From assembly GCA_963666205.1 (NCBI GenBank), contig OY762654.1, positions 2,272,001 to 2,336,000 of the forward strand: 64,000 nt of DNA, given 5' to 3'. Positions 37,460 through 48,701 of the stretch are shown piece by piece. How positions within the stretch are numbered: the stretch's first letter is position 1; each line of letters begins with the position of its first letter. A program made the position numbers and the translations under genes. Origin of the DNA: Synergistales bacterium. Lineage in GTDB: Bacteria > Synergistota > Synergistia > Synergistales > JAFGMB01. Under the pieces are notes generated by a model. It made no database searches and was not told where the DNA came from. It worked only from the letters and a program-made list of their open reading frames with translations.

Positions 37460-38010
37460 TTGTTTTCTCCTTCTCTTCTAGGACTATCTGGAAGTAGTAT
37501 CAGCGTTTTCGAGGGGGTTCTTAATGGAACATGCAACTTAATTATGGATCTTCTCCAGAATGGGGAAGAATTTGAGGAGGCTCTAAGAAGGTTCAGCAGA
37601 GGGGATATGCAGAAGTCGATCCTTCCATGGATATTGATGGAATAGATACTGCTCTTAAGGCAATGATACTTTCTCAGGTTCTTATGAATTCTCCTGTTCC
37701 GGATATTGGTGCCATGGAGGTAAAGGGGATATCAGATCTTGATCCTGTATATATTAACAGCGCAAGGGATAAAAATGAACGGATCCGTCTTATCGCCAAG
37801 GGCGAAAGGATGAATGGTGATATCCGGATATCAGTGAAACCGATATCTCTTGCACCTGATCATCCTCTGTATTATCTTCCAGGAGCAGTCAACGGGATCA
37901 TTCTGTCTTACGATGTCCTTGATTCAATTTGTCTTACCGGTGCACGTACTGGTTCAAGGGAAACAGGTTTTGCTCTGCTTCATGATCTGCTATCCTTGTG
38001 GGGGGTAGAA
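37460..38010 (+). pseudogene. hom: Homoserine dehydrogenase remnant (N-terminal domain missing, frameshifted)
   Basis: FEGVLNGTCNLI...FEEAL / KVQQRGYAEVDPSMDIDGIDTALK...HPL...G..NGI...GARTGSRETGFALLHD; 1-nt frameshift near 37586; no NAD-binding domain. Confidence 0.82.
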
Positions 38011-38061
38011 TTTAAGATTCTCCAGTTCTGCTTTTTCTTTAAAATGAGGAGGTTCCCGCAT

Positions 38062-39111
38062 TTGATCGTTCAAAAATATGGAGGTTCTTCTCTTTCATGT
38101 TCCGAAAAGATTCTTAAAGTGGCTGAAAGAATAGTATATGATCTTTCTTCCCATGGAAAAATGGTAGTAGTAGTTTCTGCTATGGGAGATACCACAGATT
38201 ATCTTCTTGATCTTGCTGAACTGGTTTCTGAAAAACCTCTTTCCCGGGAAGTAGATGTTCTTCTTTCAACGGGAGAGCAGATATCAGCCTCACTTCTGGC
38301 CATGGCTCTGGGCACAAAGGGGATATGTGCAAGATCTTTCAATGCTTTCCAGCTTGGAATCATTACGGATGATCATCATGGAAATGCCCGTATAATCTCT
38401 ATAGATAAGGGGAAAATCGAAGAATCTTTTAAAGATAATGATGTACTTGTCGTAACCGGCTTTCAGGGTATTAACTCCCTTGGTGATATAACGACCCTCG
38501 GCAGGGGGGGGTCTGATATTACTGCTGTAGCCATAGCTTCCTGCTGTAACTGCCCCTGTGAAATATACAGTGATGTGGCTGGTATATATACCTGCGATCC
38601 CGGATTGATACCTGGAGCTAAAAAACTGGAATTTATAACGTATGACCATATGCTTATTCTGGCCATGGCTGGTGCTGAAGTTCTTAATCCTGTTGCCGTA
38701 GAAAAAGCAAAAAATGATGGGGTTCCTCTCTATTGTGGCTCCACTTTCTCAGACGAAAAAGGAACGAGAGTGGTGGATTCCTTTCCTGATGAAATGGAAC
38801 TTCAGGATGTTATCGGTATTGCAACTGAAATAGTAGATGGGAAACTTTTTCACACGAAAGTGGGGGCTGATTATCCGGAATTTTCTCTCTCCAATTCTTT
38901 TTTCAGTGGTCCTTTGACAAGGATAACTGCAGTGGGAAATAGGAGAGATCATGAAGCTTTGGGAAACCATGTTCTTTTGTCCCTCAATATGGCAGGGATA
39001 CACCTTTTTGAAGCCAGTGTTAATCCTGGTAATTTTTCAGCTTTGATAAGTACAGAGGACCGGAAACGTTCTGTTGAGGTTTTGGCTTTAGAATTTGGTT
39101 TGCTGAGATAG
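38062..39111 (+). CDS. lysC: Aspartate kinase
   Basis: TTG start behind AGGAGG; IVQKYGGSS, VVSAMGDTTD, LSTGEQ, TLGRGGSD, IYSDVAGIYTCDP; reduced ACT region. Confidence 0.88.
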   Translation: MIVQKYGGSSLSCSEKILKVAERIVYDLSSHGKMVVVVSAMGDTTDYLLDLAELVSEKPLSREVDVLLSTGEQISASLLAMALGTKGICARSFNAFQLGIITDDHHGNARIISIDKGKIEESFKDNDVLVVTGFQGINSLGDITTLGRGGSDITAVAIASCCNCPCEIYSDVAGIYTCDPGLIPGAKKLEFITYDHMLILAMAGAEVLNPVAVEKAKNDGVPLYCGSTFSDEKGTRVVDSFPDEMELQDVIGIATEIVDGKLFHTKVGADYPEFSLSNSFFSGPLTRITAVGNRRDHEALGNHVLLSLNMAGIHLFEASVNPGNFSALISTEDRKRSVEVLALEFGLLR

Positions 39112-43587: not shown

Positions 43588-44028
43588 GTGAATGTTATGA
43601 CAAAAATGCAGGTTAATTATGTTTATTTTGCTCTTGTTCTTTTACTTTCCATGCTTCTTCTTATAACCGGTCGCATAATGGTTGCACAAAGCTATTCTTC
43701 TGAGACTGAAAATGTCGGGAGGGTAGAAGTAGCACAGGCAAGGCAGAGAATTCTTACAGGAGAGAGTCTTTTTGTTTGTGCATACGATGGTATTGAAAAA
43801 TACAGATCCGTTGCTCTTGAAGGATCCATATCCCTCAATAGTTTCAAGGAGGTATTGAATGAAATACCTCTGGATAAAGAGATAATATTTTACTGAGCAT
43901 GACCGGAGGAAGCTTCAGCAGTCCGTGTGGCTGCGTCCTTTCTTGAGCAGGGCTACAATGTCAAAGCTCTTCTCGGAGGAGTAGATGCGTGGAAAGATGC
44001 AGGTTATATTGATCTTGTATGTGAATGA
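43588..44028 (+). CDS. Exported rhodanese-like (seleno)protein with two in-frame UGA codons (Y-U-A-U-P)
   Basis: Frame continues past TGA 43894 and TGA 43900 as PEEASAVRVAASFLEQGYNVKALLGGVDAWKDAGY, the rhodanese C-terminal signature; SECIS-like hairpin at 43918-43934. Confidence 0.8.
43906..43940 (+). promoter_or_regulatory. Candidate bacterial SECIS element
   Basis: Stem GCAGUC/GGCUGC with loop CGUGU, starting 22 nt after the second UGA; possible lower stem GAGGA/UCCUU. Confidence 0.6.
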
Positions 44029-44396
44029 GTTATCACTTTATGTGTCTTTAAAATAGGGGAAACGAATATAATCCGCGTAAATCTCGTTCGGTTGAAGAAC
44101 CCATAAAAACAGAAACAGGCGATATGTTACTGTAGAAGTGGAAAAAGATTTGCAATGATGGGGCTGAAAAGCCCCTTTCCAGTTTTATTCTCTTGGTTAT
44201 TTTACTTAAGGATCGTATATGGATCTTTTCCCATATCTGAATGCTATCAGGCCCCCCACGGGTATTCTGGTAGAAGGGAAAATGAGGGGTATTTCGTTAA
44301 TGGCATTTCCCTTTGGCGAGAGTGTTCTTTATTGAACTGGGAAATTCGGTATTCTATTCTGAAAATTGCCATTATCATTTTTTAGAAAAATAATGG

Positions 44397-44425
44397 TTGA
44401 CTCATTCTATAAACATGTGTAAGAT
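44397..44425 (+). promoter_or_regulatory. Sigma70 promoter of the ilv leader region
   Basis: TTGACT-17 bp-TAAGAT with TG extension. Confidence 0.75.
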
Positions 44426-44470
44426 GACCACTAATTTACTTTCAGCAGCCACAGCAAAGGAGGGATAGCA

Positions 44471-44572
44471 GTGAAAGGAACGTCATTTATCAAGATCCAG
44501 CACATCAACGTAATAATTATAGCCATCATTATTAGCTGCGGGTCCCTTCCTGGAGCGTTTGTTGGCTGTTAA
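44471..44572 (+). CDS. Ile-rich ilv attenuator leader peptide, copy 1 (33 aa, MKGTSFIKIQHINVIIIAIIISCGSLPGAFVGC)
   Basis: AAAGGAGG RBS, GTG start, 9 Ile codons, followed by antiterminator and terminator. Confidence 0.85.
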   Translation: MKGTSFIKIQHINVIIIAIIISCGSLPGAFVGC

Positions 44573-44593
44573 CATCTGACCAGCATGCATTTC

Positions 44594-44632
44594 AGGGCCG
44601 GGATTCCCCGAAGGGGTTCCGGCCCTTTTTTT
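44594..44632 (+). terminator. Attenuator terminator 1
   Basis: AGGGCCGGGATTCC...GGGGTTCCGGCCC followed by TTTTTTT. Confidence 0.9.
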
Positions 44633-44711
44633 GTGGAAATCAAAGAAGTGATTCAGTAGCGATATAGAGATGGATTGTTAGCGATACCTTGTCAACAAAG
44701 GAGGGATAGCA

Positions 44712-44813
44712 GTGAAAGGAACGTCATTTGTAAAGATCCAGTACATCAACATAATAATTATAGCCATCATTATTAACTGCGGGTCCCTTCCTGGAGCATT
44801 TGTTGGCTGTTAA
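44712..44813 (+). CDS. Ile-rich ilv attenuator leader peptide, copy 2 (33 aa, MKGTSFVKIQYINIIIIAIIINCGSLPGAFVGC)
   Basis: Near-identical to copy 1, 241 nt downstream; same RBS; 9 Ile codons. Confidence 0.85.
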   Translation: MKGTSFVKIQYINIIIIAIIINCGSLPGAFVGC

Positions 44814-44834
44814 CATATCACCAGCAGGCATTTC

Positions 44835-44871
44835 AGGGCCGGGACTCCCGAAGGGGTCCCGGCCCTTTTTT
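44835..44871 (+). terminator. Attenuator terminator 2
   Basis: AGGGCCGGGACTCC-CGAA-GGGGTCCCGGCCC followed by TTTTTT. Confidence 0.9.
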
Positions 44872-44903
44872 GTGGAGAAACTGAGGATAAGGGAGGGAAA
44901 GTT

Positions 44904-45155
44904 ATGGAGGGTTATCTCAAGGTAGTAGCAGAAGACAATCCGGCAACTCTTGTTAAGATATCAAGTCTTCTGTGCAGGAAAGGTTATGAAGTTAAAAGCC
45001 TGACTTTTGGGCCTGATTCATCTGAAGGATTGTCTCTTTTCAACATTGTCCTGAGGGATAACGGAAAAGAAGCCATCAGGATCCTTAAGCAGATAAACAA
45101 GCTGATCGAAGTTGTTGAAGTGAGATCAGTAGAGCCTGAAGGAGTGACTGTATAA
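44904..45155 (+). CDS. ilvN: Acetolactate synthase small subunit, short ACT-only form
   Basis: ACT domain ending KQINKLIEVVEV; first gene ahead of ilvC and ilvB. Confidence 0.8.
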   Translation: MEGYLKVVAEDNPATLVKISSLLCRKGYEVKSLTFGPDSSEGLSLFNIVLRDNGKEAIRILKQINKLIEVVEVRSVEPEGVTV

Positions 45156-45214: not shown

Positions 45215-46231
45215 ATGACATTGGCAAAGATCTATTACGACAAAGATACGGATATGAAGGTTCTTGAGGGAAAGACAGTAGCAGTACTTGGATATGGAAG
45301 CCAGGGGCATGCCCATGCCCAGAATCTTAGGGACAGTGGTGTGAATGTAGTGGTAGGACTCTATGAAGGCAGTCGTTCTGCCGTTACTGCAAGAGCAGAC
45401 GGATTTGAGGTTTTTTCTGTTGGTGAAGCGACATCTCTGGCAGATGTAGTAATGTTCCTTATGCCCGATCATCTTCAGGGCAGGGTCTTTCATGAAAGTG
45501 TTAAGCCCAATCTTAAGCAGGGAATGGCCCTTGCCTTTGCCCATGGATTCTCAATCCACTTCAACCAGGTTGAACCACCTGCAGGAGTGGATGTATTCAT
45601 GATCTCTCCCAAGAGTCCTGGTCACCTGGTGAGGTCCATGTACAAGGAAGGTAAGGGAGTACCTGCTCTTGTGGCGGTAAGGGAGAATGCGTCAGGTAAT
45701 GCCATGGATATAGCGCTGGCCTATGGTTCAGGTATAGGTGCAGGCAGGGCAGGGATTCTTGAGACTAATTTCAAGGAAGAAACGGAGACCGATCTTTTTG
45801 GTGAGCAGGTAGTTCTCTGCGGAGGCATCACTGAACTTATGAAAGCTGGTTTTGAAGTTCTGACCGAGGCAGGTTACGATCCTGAGATCGCCTACTTCGA
45901 GTGTCTTAATGAGATGAAGCTCATAGTGGATCTTATGTTCGAGGGTGGAATTTCGTGGATGAGATACAGTGTGAGTGATACTGCCAACTATGGAGATATG
46001 TGTGTGGGTCCCAGGATCATAGATGAGGATGCAAGAGAGAAGATGAGAGAAGTCCTCCGCAATGTTCAGGATGGGGTTTTTGCAAAGGACTGGATCCTTG
46101 AGAATCAGACAGGCCGTCCCCGCTTAAAGAAGTGGATGAAGAGTGAACAGGAACACCCAATAGAGACGGTTGGTTCCCAGCTCAGGGATATGATGCCATG
46201 GCTTAATGCCAAAAGGGTTCCTAAACCCTAG
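45215..46231 (+). CDS. ilvC: Ketol-acid reductoisomerase
   Basis: [45 protein letters not shown]. Confidence 0.97.
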
Positions 46232-46302: not shown

Positions 46303-47967
46303 ATGAAAATGACAGGTGCTGAAATGGTCGTTAAATCCCTTGAAAAAGAGAATATTGGCTGTGTGTTCGGATTACCGGGAGGGACGGTGATACCCCTTTA
46401 TGATGCCTTGTACGATGCCTCGTTTCTTCATGTCCTGATGCGGCATGAACAGGCGGCATGTCATGCCGCGGAAGGTTATGCCCGTATAAAGGGAAAAGCG
46501 GGAGTATGCATTGTAACCTCCGGTCCGGGGGCCACCAATGCTATTACGGGATTGTCAAATGCCATGCTTGATTCAGTTCCTCTTGTTCTTATAGCAGGCC
46601 ATGTCGCAAATTCGATGATGGGGACAGATGCCTTTCAGGAGGCAGATATTTTCGGGAGCAGCTTTTCCTTTGTCAAACACAGTTTCTTTGTTAAAAAAAT
46701 AGAAGAACTGACCTATGCCATGAAAAATGCATTTGCTCTTGCAGAATCCGGCCGACCTGGTCCTGTCCTGATAACTCTTCCGGTAGATGTTCAGCGTTCG
46801 GTAGGGGAGTTCGAATATCCTGATAGAGCTGCCCTGCCGACGTCCGGTATGGTTTCCTTTCCGGATCCTGATCTGATCAAATCTACATTTAGTGCGATTC
46901 AGGATTCCTTTCGACCTGTAATCCTTGCAGGAGGAGGAATTTTAAGTTCCAGGGCAAGTTCTGAACTATCAGAATTTGCAGAAAAAATGAATATACCTGT
47001 AGCTACGACCCTTATGGGGAAGGGTGCTTTCCCCGAGAGTTCTGATCTTTCCCTGGGAATGGCTGGTATGCATGGAACCCCCCAGGCAAATCTGGCTATA
47101 TCCAATTCCGATCTTCTGATTGCAGTAGGGACTAGATTCAGTGACAGGACTACCGGTAATCTCGGCAAATTTGCTCCCTCTGCCCGTGTCATTCATGTCG
47201 ATATTGATGAATCGGAATTTGACAAGATTCGTAAGGCAGACTTTCCTGTTCATGGTGATGCAGGAGCCGTATTAAAGGAACTATCTTCAAAAACCGGATC
47301 GCGACATTCTCCGACCCAGTGGCTTGATCAGATTGCTGAATGGAAAGATACTTATCCTCTCGAACCCGAAGAAGACTCCCTATCTGCTCCCCTGATTATC
47401 AGGAAACTTAGAGAAAAGGTAGGAACGGACTGTATTCTAACCACTGAAGTCGGTCAGAACCAGATGTGGTCTGCTCTTCACTGGACAGTTGATAAACCGG
47501 GAAAATTTATCACATCGGGGGGGCTTGGGACCATGGGCTTTGGCTTTCCTGCAGCTATCGGGGCATCTTTTGCCAGAGGTAAAGAACCAGTGGTCTGCGT
47601 TGCAGGAGATGGAAGCCTTCTTATGAATCTCCAGGAACTTGAAACATGTGCGAGATATGAACTACCGGTCAAGATCTTCCTGCTGAATAACGGAACCCTT
47701 GGAATGGTGAGGCAGTGGCAGGAAATGTTTGCCAATGAGAGATATTCCCATACTGTTACCGGGGATAAATGTAATTTCCCCCAAATTGCGGAAGCATGCG
47801 GAATAATGGGCCTTCATGTGGATTCAGTGGCAGATCTGGAAAGAGCTCTTGAAACTGTTTTTCTTCACAATGGTCCGGTTCTGGTTGACTGTCGAATACC
47901 TCTTGAGGAAAAGGTCATGCCGATGGTCCCTCCAGGTAGAGGCCTTGCCGAGTTCCTGTACCGGTAA
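46303..47967 (+). CDS. ilvB: Acetolactate synthase large subunit
   Basis: FGLPGG, RHEQ, TSGPGATN, GMAGMHG, SGGLGTMGFG, GDGS, LGMVRQWQ. Confidence 0.96.
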   Translation: MKMTGAEMVVKSLEKENIGCVFGLPGGTVIPLYDALYDASFLHVLMRHEQAACHAAEGYARIKGKAGVCIVTSGPGATNAITGLSNAMLDSVPLVLIAGHVANSMMGTDAFQEADIFGSSFSFVKHSFFVKKIEELTYAMKNAFALAESGRPGPVLITLPVDVQRSVGEFEYPDRAALPTSGMVSFPDPDLIKSTFSAIQDSFRPVILAGGGILSSRASSELSEFAEKMNIPVATTLMGKGAFPESSDLSLGMAGMHGTPQANLAISNSDLLIAVGTRFSDRTTGNLGKFAPSARVIHVDIDESEFDKIRKADFPVHGDAGAVLKELSSKTGSRHSPTQWLDQIAEWKDTYPLEPEEDSLSAPLIIRKLREKVGTDCILTTEVGQNQMWSALHWTVDKPGKFITSGGLGTMGFGFPAAIGASFARGKEPVVCVAGDGSLLMNLQELETCARYELPVKIFLLNNGTLGMVRQWQEMFANERYSHTVTGDKCNFPQIAEACGIMGLHVDSVADLERALETVFLHNGPVLVDCRIPLEEKVMPMVPPGRGLAEFLYR

Positions 47968-47999
47968 TCGTGTTGTGACCTGTTTCCTCGATTCTTGGT

Positions 48000-48092
48000 A
48001 TGGAGGGTATTTCCAATGTAAATGGAGTTAACAGGTTAGTCCTGCTTATCCTTAACTGCTGGTTCCCTTCTGGAGCGATTGTTGACGGTTAG
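48000..48092 (+). CDS. Putative third, diverged leader peptide (30 aa, MEGISNVNGVNRLVLLILNCWFPSGAIVDG)
   Basis: 3' half homologous to leaders 1 and 2 (TTAACTGC.GGT.CC.T.CTGGAGC..TTGTTG...CATT..AGGGCCGG); LVLLIL run; RBS weak or absent. Confidence 0.55.
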   Translation: MEGISNVNGVNRLVLLILNCWFPSGAIVDG

Positions 48093-48112
48093 CTTCTCAC
48101 CGTAAGACATTC

Positions 48113-48147
48113 AAGGGCCGGAACCCACAAAATATGTCTGGTCTTTC
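48113..48147 (+). terminator. Weak or degenerate attenuator terminator 3
   Basis: AAGGGCCGGA/TCTGGTCTTT 10-bp stem with 3 G-U pairs and a 14-nt loop. Confidence 0.45.
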
Positions 48148-48185: not shown

Positions 48186-48701
48186 ATGAAAGGATATCTA
48201 AGTGTTCTGACCCGGAATAGCCCTGGTGTTTTCATGAAAATCTCCAGTCTTCTTTACAAAAGTGGTCTGGAAATGGAAAATCTGACTTTTGGACAGGATT
48301 CATCGGTAGTCTGTTTCCGTTTCAACATTGCTGTAACCACAGGCAGAGTGAATTCTTATCAGGTGGTAAATCAGCTCAAAAAACTGGTCGAGGTGATCGA
48401 CGTCAAAGAAGCAGAGAAAGATTGCCTGGTTGAACAATGTATGATAAATCTCAAGGTAAGGAAAACCATGCAGAACGGACCTCGCCTTTTTCTGATAGCT
48501 GACCTTTTTAATGCAAGGGTGGTTCATCATGATCAGGAAACGACAACATTTGAACTCATGGGAGATAGCGTAGAGACTGGAGCCTGTCTCGGTGCTTTAA
48601 AGTCCTTTGAAATAGTTGAATTGTCCGTCTTCAATGTTGATGAAATCGTCAAGGGCGATTTTAAATGTAATAGAAAGAGTTCTCTGCAGATTACAGTATA
48701 A
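48186..48701 (+). CDS. ilvN: Acetolactate synthase small subunit, long form (paralogue)
   Basis: ACT domain (QLKKLVEVIDV) plus IlvH-like C-terminal domain (IADLFNARVV...FELMGD). Confidence 0.8.
   Translation: MKGYLSVLTRNSPGVFMKISSLLYKSGLEMENLTFGQDSSVVCFRFNIAVTTGRVNSYQVVNQLKKLVEVIDVKEAEKDCLVEQCMINLKVRKTMQNGPRLFLIADLFNARVVHHDQETTTFELMGDSVETGACLGALKSFEIVELSVFNVDEIVKGDFKCNRKSSLQITV

Follow-up and report, generated by a model that had tools for sequence, protein, structure and literature searches.

A Predicted Isoleucine-Type Leader-Peptide Attenuator, Doubled in One Synergistales Genus, Precedes an ilv Operon

Introduction

The enterobacterial leaders ilvL, leuL, thrL, trpL and hisL are ribosome-mediated leader-peptide attenuators that operate by a 1:2, 2:3 and 3:4 pairing logic. 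A model of ribosome-mediated attenuation has been published (PMC1183508), and the Corynebacterium ilvB-II uORF is placed in the classical leader-peptide attenuator class (PMC10272879). Stav et al. (2019; PMC6429828) described the PBC-10 motif, which occurs mostly in Synergistaceae and precedes ilvH, encoding the acetolactate synthase small subunit, and other amino-acid genes, often several times per genome. It counts 53–58 examples, including one before acetohydroxyacid synthase in Thermovirga lienii (region NC_016148.1/318758-319077). The motif combines a terminator with alternative structures and was read as a possible protein-binding element (PMC6429828).

Regulatory elements arranged in series have been described for several other leaders. 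Tandem homologous riboswitches are described as 'pseudo-cooperative' (PMC9481103), and tandem T-boxes have been reported before branched-chain amino-acid operons (PMC12452182). The Salmonella mgtCBR leader contains the 'tandem attenuators' mgtM and mgtP, which respond to two signals, ATP and proline, act additively and, in the accessible text, have no intrinsic terminators (PMC3641672). Two leader peptides act on translation of ermB (PMC8274638), and the rimP leader has tandem terminators, the available part of that report making no mention of doubled leader peptides (PMC2965389).

The locus described here, upstream of ilvN'-ilvC-ilvB in a Synergistales genome, appears from sequence comparison to hold a real, genus-conserved, doubled Ile-type leader-peptide attenuator built on a phylum-wide scaffold. 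In the literature searched, which took in few subscription journals, no report was found of two homologous leader-peptide attenuators for the same amino acid in series, and no reinterpretation of PBC-10. The preliminary description of this DNA knew of no such arrangement for peptide attenuators or for this lineage. This stands for a homologous pair reading one signal, whereas the scaffold is probably the published PBC-10 motif, and the term 'tandem attenuators' is already in print for mgtCBR, as far as the accessible text of these sources goes. The identity with PBC-10 is deduced from genomic context and set by the motif's verbal description, because the published consensus is a picture (Fig. 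S7).

Results

Organization of the Doubled Leader

Between positions 43800 and 45400 of the window (the whole 64,000-nucleotide stretch analysed), a single family of direct repeats was found, and this is the doubled unit. Its two copies of 188 nt, at 44452–44639 and 44693–44880, are 88% identical without gaps and lie 241 nt apart, in agreement with the two copies of about 180 nt at this spacing that had been noticed before. Each copy contains a ribosome site, a 33-codon ORF with nine Ile codons, an antiterminator and an intrinsic terminator; all features of the operon given below lie on the plus strand. A gapped alignment shows 15 differences between the copies, two of which are end gaps in or beyond the U-run. 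The terminators differ by a loop indel and by one-sided changes from G-U to G-C or from U-G to C-G. The frame, the Ile count and the pairing are thus preserved between the copies, as proposed, but two-sided compensation is absent from the terminator.

A sigma70-type promoter-like site, TTGACT-17-TAAGAT (9/12), is predicted at 44397–44425 and recurs at the equivalent locus (L012) of a sister species. Consensus scoring yields a second candidate, TTGCCA-17-AATAAT (10/12), at 44366–44394. The first had been presented as a consensus promoter; it is present, but such sites are barely above chance level, with six found versus 3.4 ± 1.9 in shuffles. The sole promoter-like site between or inside the units, TTGTAA-16-CATAAT (9/12, 44728–44755), lies within the second leader ORF, past its start.

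This single site, together with an N gap in copy 2 of the sister-species assembly, speaks for a reading in which the units act apart, with an internal promoter feeding unit 2 or the doubling being an assembly artefact. We consider this very improbable. The site is not kept, its -35 element reading TTTATC in copy 1 and in both copies of the sister species. Furthermore, the genome is a single contig in which the copies differ at 15 positions, and the unique spacer is common to the sister species and bridged in an independent metagenome. Both possibilities had been raised in the preliminary description, and neither is borne out.

Both units recur in the sister species (G001), together with a homologous spacer, which here measures 53 nt (44640–44692), contains no promoter-like site and is 79% identical between the two species. 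The sister-species copies are identical at 169 of 170 positions up to the assembly gap, which may reflect gene conversion or collapsed assembly. Both units are bridged by a 251-nt contig (44471–44722) of an independent activated-sludge metagenome, and the next contig runs from 44712 into ilvB; the 49-nt stretch common to the two has about twice their depth, as expected of two copies. The contig joints listed for four runs, two of which (X4 and X5) cover the region, include none that skips 241 nt. The PLSDB plasmids gave no match, and an exact 25-nt pattern had no match in metagenome contigs. An artefact is very unlikely on this comparison, since the pair lies on a single contig, differs at 15 positions between copies and recurs both in the sister species and in an independent metagenome.

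Leader ORFs and Control Codons

Each leader is preceded by a GGAGGGA Shine-Dalgarno (SD) sequence, at 44459–44465 and 44700–44706, the first of which is also a potential pairing partner of segment 2 in unit 1. Leader ORF 1 (44471–44572, starting at GTG 44471 and not at 44472) and leader ORF 2 (44712–44813) have the GTG start, 33 codons and nine Ile codons with which they had been described; their sequences are VKGTSFIKIQHINVIIIAIIISCGSLPGAFVGC and VKGTSFVKIQYINIIIIAIIINCGSLPGAFVGC, respectively. The control run comprises codons 15–21 (44513–44533) of ORF 1 and codons 14–21 (44751–44774) of ORF 2. Seven of the last ten codons before the scaffold are Ile in leader 1 and eight in leader 2, and the probability of at least seven Ile in ten codons is about 1.3e-6 at the Ile frequency of the genome.

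ATA was considered as a rare, stall-prone codon and ruled out, because it is the commonest Ile codon of this genome (28.5 per 1000 codons, with ATC at 24.8 and ATT at 21.6). At G000:C1:383378-500533, ARAGORN lists a single tRNA-Ile(GAT) gene and a tRNA-Leu with anticodon AAG (C1:456001-456087), which is unusual in bacteria. An arrest peptide is disfavoured, as the residues that follow the control run vary (SCGSPPG, SCGVLPG, SSGSPE, RCGDSPG) and are encoded on paired RNA.

The other ilv leaders compared, 35 in number, average 8.5 Ile, Leu or Val in their last ten codons. At least two of the three amino acids are mixed in 33 of them, whereas the doubled leaders are nearly pure Ile; the only other Ile-rich leader of the set, L050, belongs to a single unit.

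Conservation of the Scaffold in Synergistota

A covariance model of the scaffold has a match in 104 of 151 Synergistota genomes, and this genome contains ten strong copies, two weaker full-length matches and one doubtful low match. The closest IlvC relatives are from Synergistales. Among 47 other ilvC loci, a number that includes four repeats of genomes already counted, 39 have exactly one full unit, one has a cut-off unit and seven have none. The model was re-run on the 76 genomes with at least two matches plus G003, and the tables were read by eye; among 247 matches in these 77 genomes, only the units of G001 lie less than 1 kb apart on one strand. The doubled unit is found in 2 of 78 genomes, this one (G000) and G001, and since it is limited to two species of one genus, the doubling is best taken as one event.

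The control codons carried by the reused scaffold may specify Leu, Val, Phe, Tyr or Thr/Met, and some copies are mixed. Leu codons precede an aconitase-family leuC, Val codons precede panB and a class IV aminotransferase gene, and Phe codons precede a family-3 solute-binding-fold gene in an aromatic operon. In the sister species G001, Met/Thr codons are found before hom. Some further units were encountered. Those at L044:2976-3070 and L047:2970-3061 (minus strand) look intact, are Tyr-rich and Ile/Val/Leu-rich, respectively, and are followed by no long gene on their strand; they are orphans or control very short ORFs. At L129:1500-1650 (G000:C1:1749048-1749135), a weaker unit of 37 bits with a Phe/Leu/Ile-containing leader precedes a gene for a 405-aa membrane-like protein that has no Pfam match. 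A leader rich in Tyr, Phe and Trp, on a different scaffold, lies before a DAHP synthase gene at L045:1836-2100 (minus strand).

The reading frame was compared across 47 members, a set that excludes four repeat genomes (L055, L057, L059 and L060), the cut-off unit L051 and the relic unit described below. An SD sequence and a start codon lie in frame with the scaffold in 46 of the 47, and in the other two frames in 0 and 1 of them; the leader stop falls 8–12 codons past the anchor in 46. This conservation of frame is the strongest sign, at the level of sequence, that the leaders are translated. It also bears on the proposal for PBC-10, in which the scaffold would be a protein-binding (or ligand-binding) element and the ORFs would be incidental. 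Stav et al. (2019) cautiously suggested, in the text available, that a protein dimer binds to a palindrome close to P1 of PBC-10 (PMC6429828). The retained frame argues against such a reading, as does the constancy of a scaffold whose codon runs vary according to the pathway downstream. At the doubled locus, moreover, no Rfam riboswitch or T-box was matched. We regard incidental ORFs as extremely unlikely, and translated leaders as the preferred reading.

The Rfam search covered all 4227 families and gave no match at gathering score at the locus, the best hit (E 0.1) being an unrelated sRNA. No Rfam leader family matched there at E<=10, and none of 14 loci of paralogues and relatives had an Rfam match at gathering score. 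The six T-box matches of the genome lie elsewhere. Two tandem T-box matches, below the Rfam cut-off, were noticed at G000:C1:776848-777368 (L131), before asd- and dapA-like genes.

RNA Structure and Predicted Ribosome Switch

The intrinsic terminators extend over 44594–44633 (stem 44594–44626) in unit 1 and 44835–44872 (stem 44835–44866) in unit 2. Both have stems of 14 bp, with predicted energies of -25.4 and -30.8 kcal/mol, and are followed by the U-tract that the preliminary description had noted. Antiterminator 1 occupies 44540–44606, where 44540–44555 pairs with 44590–44606 around an inner helix at 44557–44588; antiterminator 2, supported by folding and covariation, occupies 44781–44847. 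In the antiterminator, both GGGUCCC and CCUGGAG pair with the terminator 5' arm to form a single long stem. What had been taken for a separate inner hairpin is the inner part of this stem. In the absence of the terminator 3' arm, the antiterminator is the minimum-energy fold, at -27.9 kcal/mol in unit 1 and -28.2 kcal/mol in unit 2. A local 'protector' hairpin (segment 1:2) at 44535–44556, the candidate counterpart of the pause hairpin of classical attenuators, overlaps the 5' strand of the antiterminator and has an energy of -11.6 kcal/mol in unit 1 and -7.6 kcal/mol in unit 2.

Covariation was examined in alignment A1, which retains 35 of 41 pattern matches after exclusion of four near-duplicates (L014, L018, L027 and L065), L052 and a false match in L066; the relatedness of the 35 sequences inflates the figures that follow. 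The terminator helix is paired in 97.9% of cells and shows two-sided changes at 7 of 11 pairs, a result obtained in 0 of 500 shuffles. For the antiterminator, 87.7% of cells are paired, and its covariation score was reached by 0 of 500 shuffles, its count of two-sided pairs by 31 of 500. The protector hairpin is paired in 90% of cells, with no covariation beyond chance (matched by 167 of 500 shuffles). Terminator and antiterminator thus covary among the relatives, a comparison that the preliminary description had suggested.

The effect of a translating ribosome was simulated by removing the nucleotides under and behind it and folding the remainder with either the terminator 5' arm only or the whole terminator. 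With the 5' arm only, the antiterminator has a probability of about 1.0 as long as the A site is at or before codon 19. The outer antiterminator helix is lost at codons 20–22 and both helices by codons 23–24, past the Ile run. With the whole terminator present, the terminator wins at equilibrium for every ribosome position; the switch would therefore be kinetic and rest on the order of folding, not on the equilibrium state that these tools compute. When both ribosome and terminator arm were left out, the folds were ambiguous: the outer antiterminator helix reached 0.5 and 0.08 in the two units, and 0.94 when unit 2 was folded, free of ribosome, with its spacer. Computed folding, covariation and ribosome masks agree that antiterminator and terminator exclude each other, as had been proposed. 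The layout of a ribosome-stalling attenuator, attributed to the locus from the beginning, is backed by covariation, reading frame, pathway-matched codons and computed geometry.

In these folds, segment 2 of the scaffold has the leader ribosome site as a further possible partner. In 25 lineage-pruned members (about one per lineage or paralogue), the cognate helix between the two averages -23.0 versus -19.2 kcal/mol for swapped partners, a difference reached in 0 of 20000 permutations, and the residuals are negative in 22 of the 25. The two doubled copies show this only modestly: of 254 ordinary AGGAGG genes, 5 and 18 pair as strongly, and the copies' own SD ranks only 7th and 21st of 45. Segment 2 (44535–44555 of the window) presumably resembles the anti-Shine-Dalgarno end of 16S rRNA, and this likeness would account for its ability to pair with ribosome sites. 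The SD helix and the local hairpin would capture segment 2 in the absence of ribosome loading and again behind a ribosome that has moved on.

Folding of the two units together raises the possibility that they are coupled, since unit 1 can pair with terminator 2. Terminator 1 would refold once the polymerase has passed and free segment 2 of unit 1, which could then act as a cross-antiterminator by pairing with the 5' arm of terminator 2, or could pair with the leader-2 ribosome site. A stalled ribosome 1 would thereby let unit 1 antiterminate terminator 2, and the second checkpoint would test whether the stall lasts about 240 more bases, an RNA timer filtering stall duration, instead of giving the product of independent trials. 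The pairing of segment 2 of unit 1 with the terminator-2 arm (-20.1 kcal/mol) equals that of unit 2's own segment; with the terminator-1 arm it has -17.7 kcal/mol. At 37 and 55 °C, with ribosome 1 at codons 17–19, the cross helix forms with a probability of 1.0 for four of the five positions given to ribosome 2; for the fifth, at its stop, the value is 0.31–0.56. After refolding of terminator 1, the probability that segment 2 of unit 1 pairs with SD2 is 0.97–0.99. The cross helix falls, however, to 0.01–0.08 when ribosome 1 is at codon 20 and ribosome 2 sits on its stop, and it spans about 290 nt in an equilibrium prediction, partly across a bound ribosome for which the mask has no steric treatment. 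Antiterminator 1 would also have to be displaced within seconds, and any recent duplication brings cross-pairing with it, whether or not the cell makes use of it. Equilibrium folds of this range that reach across a ribosome carry little evidential weight, so that we hold coupling to be unlikely, and two attenuators acting one after the other remain the preferred reading.

One contig of RNA run X9 covers 44000–44607 at a depth of 67 and stops inside terminator 1, with 44644–45126 uncovered, a pattern that would agree with termination at unit 1. It was not counted as evidence of termination: it comes from one study, contigs cannot show ends, and it begins upstream of the promoter.

Downstream Operon and Selection on the Units

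The first gene behind the leader is an ilvN-like gene (ilvN', 44904–45155) that encodes 83 aa with the first ACT domain only. It is followed by ilvC, encoding ketol-acid reductoisomerase (45215–46231), and by ilvB, encoding the acetolactate synthase large subunit (46303–47967), the only biosynthetic one over the cut-off in the genome. A third, decayed scaffold unit (48000–48146), with a terminator of -9.8 kcal/mol, precedes a second ilvN of 171 aa (48186–48701). Its Leu-rich ORF of 30 codons (48000–48092) has no ribosome site, and compared with the sister species about 140 nt are missing, including a -35-like site and the ribosome site. The relic offers, on sequence grounds, a picture of what release from selection looks like in this operon.

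In the third unit of G001 (L128:12950-13270), a -35-like site and a ribosome site accompany a Val-rich leader, the frame of which continues through the terminator. One metagenome contig has 321 letters at the third unit versus 181 here. Over the end of ilvB and the relic unit (47847–48117), one contig of run X5 joins opposite strands like an inversion, possibly an assembly effect. The spacer between the doubled units was considered as a possible leftover of the ilvN start, to which it bears, by eye only, a faint likeness. In the thr cluster (37511-38043 and 37627-39111 of the window; L128:1450-2931), hom is 5'-truncated, only about residues 179–356 matching. The remnant runs in frame into aspartate kinase, and the Met/Thr leader attenuator of G001 is missing here; the genome has two further hom paralogues.

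We take the Asn of the GYN motif in IlvN to be tied to valine feedback, for which the literature search gave no confirmation. Both IlvN proteins have GYE/GLE where most relatives have GYN, and valine feedback may have been lost in these paralogues. Its loss was considered as the cause of the doubling and set aside. Relatives L015, L016, L018, L022, L017 and L050 also have no Asn and carry one unit, so that the loss is at most a contributing factor. In IlvH, valine binds ACT1 (PMC13381585).

Identity between the two species amounts to 96% for unit 1, 79% for the spacer, 92% for ilvN' and 93% for ilvC. When 14 random changes were placed over unit 1, all seven features tested survived in 24 of 3000 trials, a rough figure given that the thresholds lie near copy 1; copy 2 retains all seven. 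Both copies therefore look to be under selection, judged by these patterns. A near-neutral local duplication, with unit 2 intact through youth or gene conversion and its effect on expression tolerated, would fit the restriction of the doubling to one genus, the near-identity of the sister-species copies and the other churn in the operon (the truncated ilvN and the relic third unit). This has, in our view, a slim chance of being correct. The spacer has drifted between the species far more than unit 1, all features survive the 15 copy differences, no joint listed for the four runs skips 241 nt, and a terminator of -31 kcal/mol ahead of the only biosynthetic ilvB cannot be without effect.

Discussion

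We consider it likely, from sequence and modelling, that the locus comprises a series of two ribosome-mediated transcription attenuators, which arose by local duplication and each of which senses charged tRNA-Ile. Both would control ilvN'-ilvC-ilvB, and possibly the second ilvN, from one promoter. In each unit, a ribosome is expected to load at GGAGGG and to translate the leader behind RNA polymerase. When Ile-tRNA is scarce, it would stall at codons up to about 19–20 and leave segment 2 free to pair with the emerging 5' arm of the terminator; the terminator could then not nucleate, and polymerase would continue. When Ile-tRNA is ample, the ribosome would proceed past codons 21–24 to the stop, covering segment 2 and the inner helix, and the terminator would form. 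Alternatively, segment 2 may pair with its own ribosome site or with the local hairpin and be captured in the absence of a ribosome or after its passage. The pair would have originated from the single, Synergistales-wide ilv attenuator by duplication in an ancestor of this genus, in a lineage with almost pure Ile control codons and not the mixed Ile/Leu/Val type.

A transcript would have to pass both checkpoints, and basal read-through would therefore be about squared, with only modest steepening. In a toy model with invented values (5% basal and 90% maximal read-through, independent units), a second unit widens the range from 18-fold to about 320-fold. The 90-to-10% window narrows from 80- to 44-fold, from 9- to 6.7-fold or from 3- to 2.6-fold, depending on the steepness of the unit. 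Under ample isoleucine, the doubling thus probably tightens control of the operon considerably. The preliminary description had anticipated a response both tighter and steeper; within the model the gain in tightness is upheld, but little is gained in steepness.

The underlying mechanism is that of the textbooks, and the doubling represents one event within one genus. Its significance would lie in serial doubling, known for riboswitches and T-boxes, of homologous ribosome-read attenuators for one amino acid. The scaffold moreover constitutes a natural experiment, being single before ilv in dozens of relatives and double in one genus, and it takes at least six codon programmes; reporters can therefore directly test how attenuators combine and whether they cross-talk. 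If the identity with PBC-10 holds, a concrete mechanism would be supplied for an orphan motif, together with a modular amino-acid sensor part. Coupling of the units, should it be true, would make the pair a kinetic-proofreading device, obtained by duplicating a reusable, codon-programmable chassis for attenuators that is probably PBC-10 and that additionally protects its own ribosome site through base pairing.

Comparison with the known systems places the locus among several of them. Like mgtCBR, it has two uORF-based attenuators in one leader. Unlike mgtCBR, whose units are described as non-homologous and as reading two signals, both units here are Ile-rich and have intrinsic terminators. With PBC-10, as described in the accessible text, it shares a scaffold that is common in Synergistota, occurs several times per genome before ilv and other amino-acid genes, and joins a terminator to alternative structures. 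By contrast, that text has neither a leader ORF nor tandem copies; the comparison extends to the text and not to the consensus figure (Fig. S7). As in tandem riboswitches and T-boxes, to judge from the parts of the reports available, two complete units for the same signal, each with its own terminator, stand in one leader. The sensor here, however, is predicted to be the translating ribosome and not an aptamer or a tRNA-binding RNA, and the near-identical units can cross-pair in folding. With the classical attenuators the locus has in common a short ORF, cognate control codons, an antiterminator that excludes an intrinsic terminator, and ilv targets. It differs from them in its scaffold, in having two complete copies in series with an Ile-only codon run, and in the covarying helix between the leader ribosome site and segment 2.
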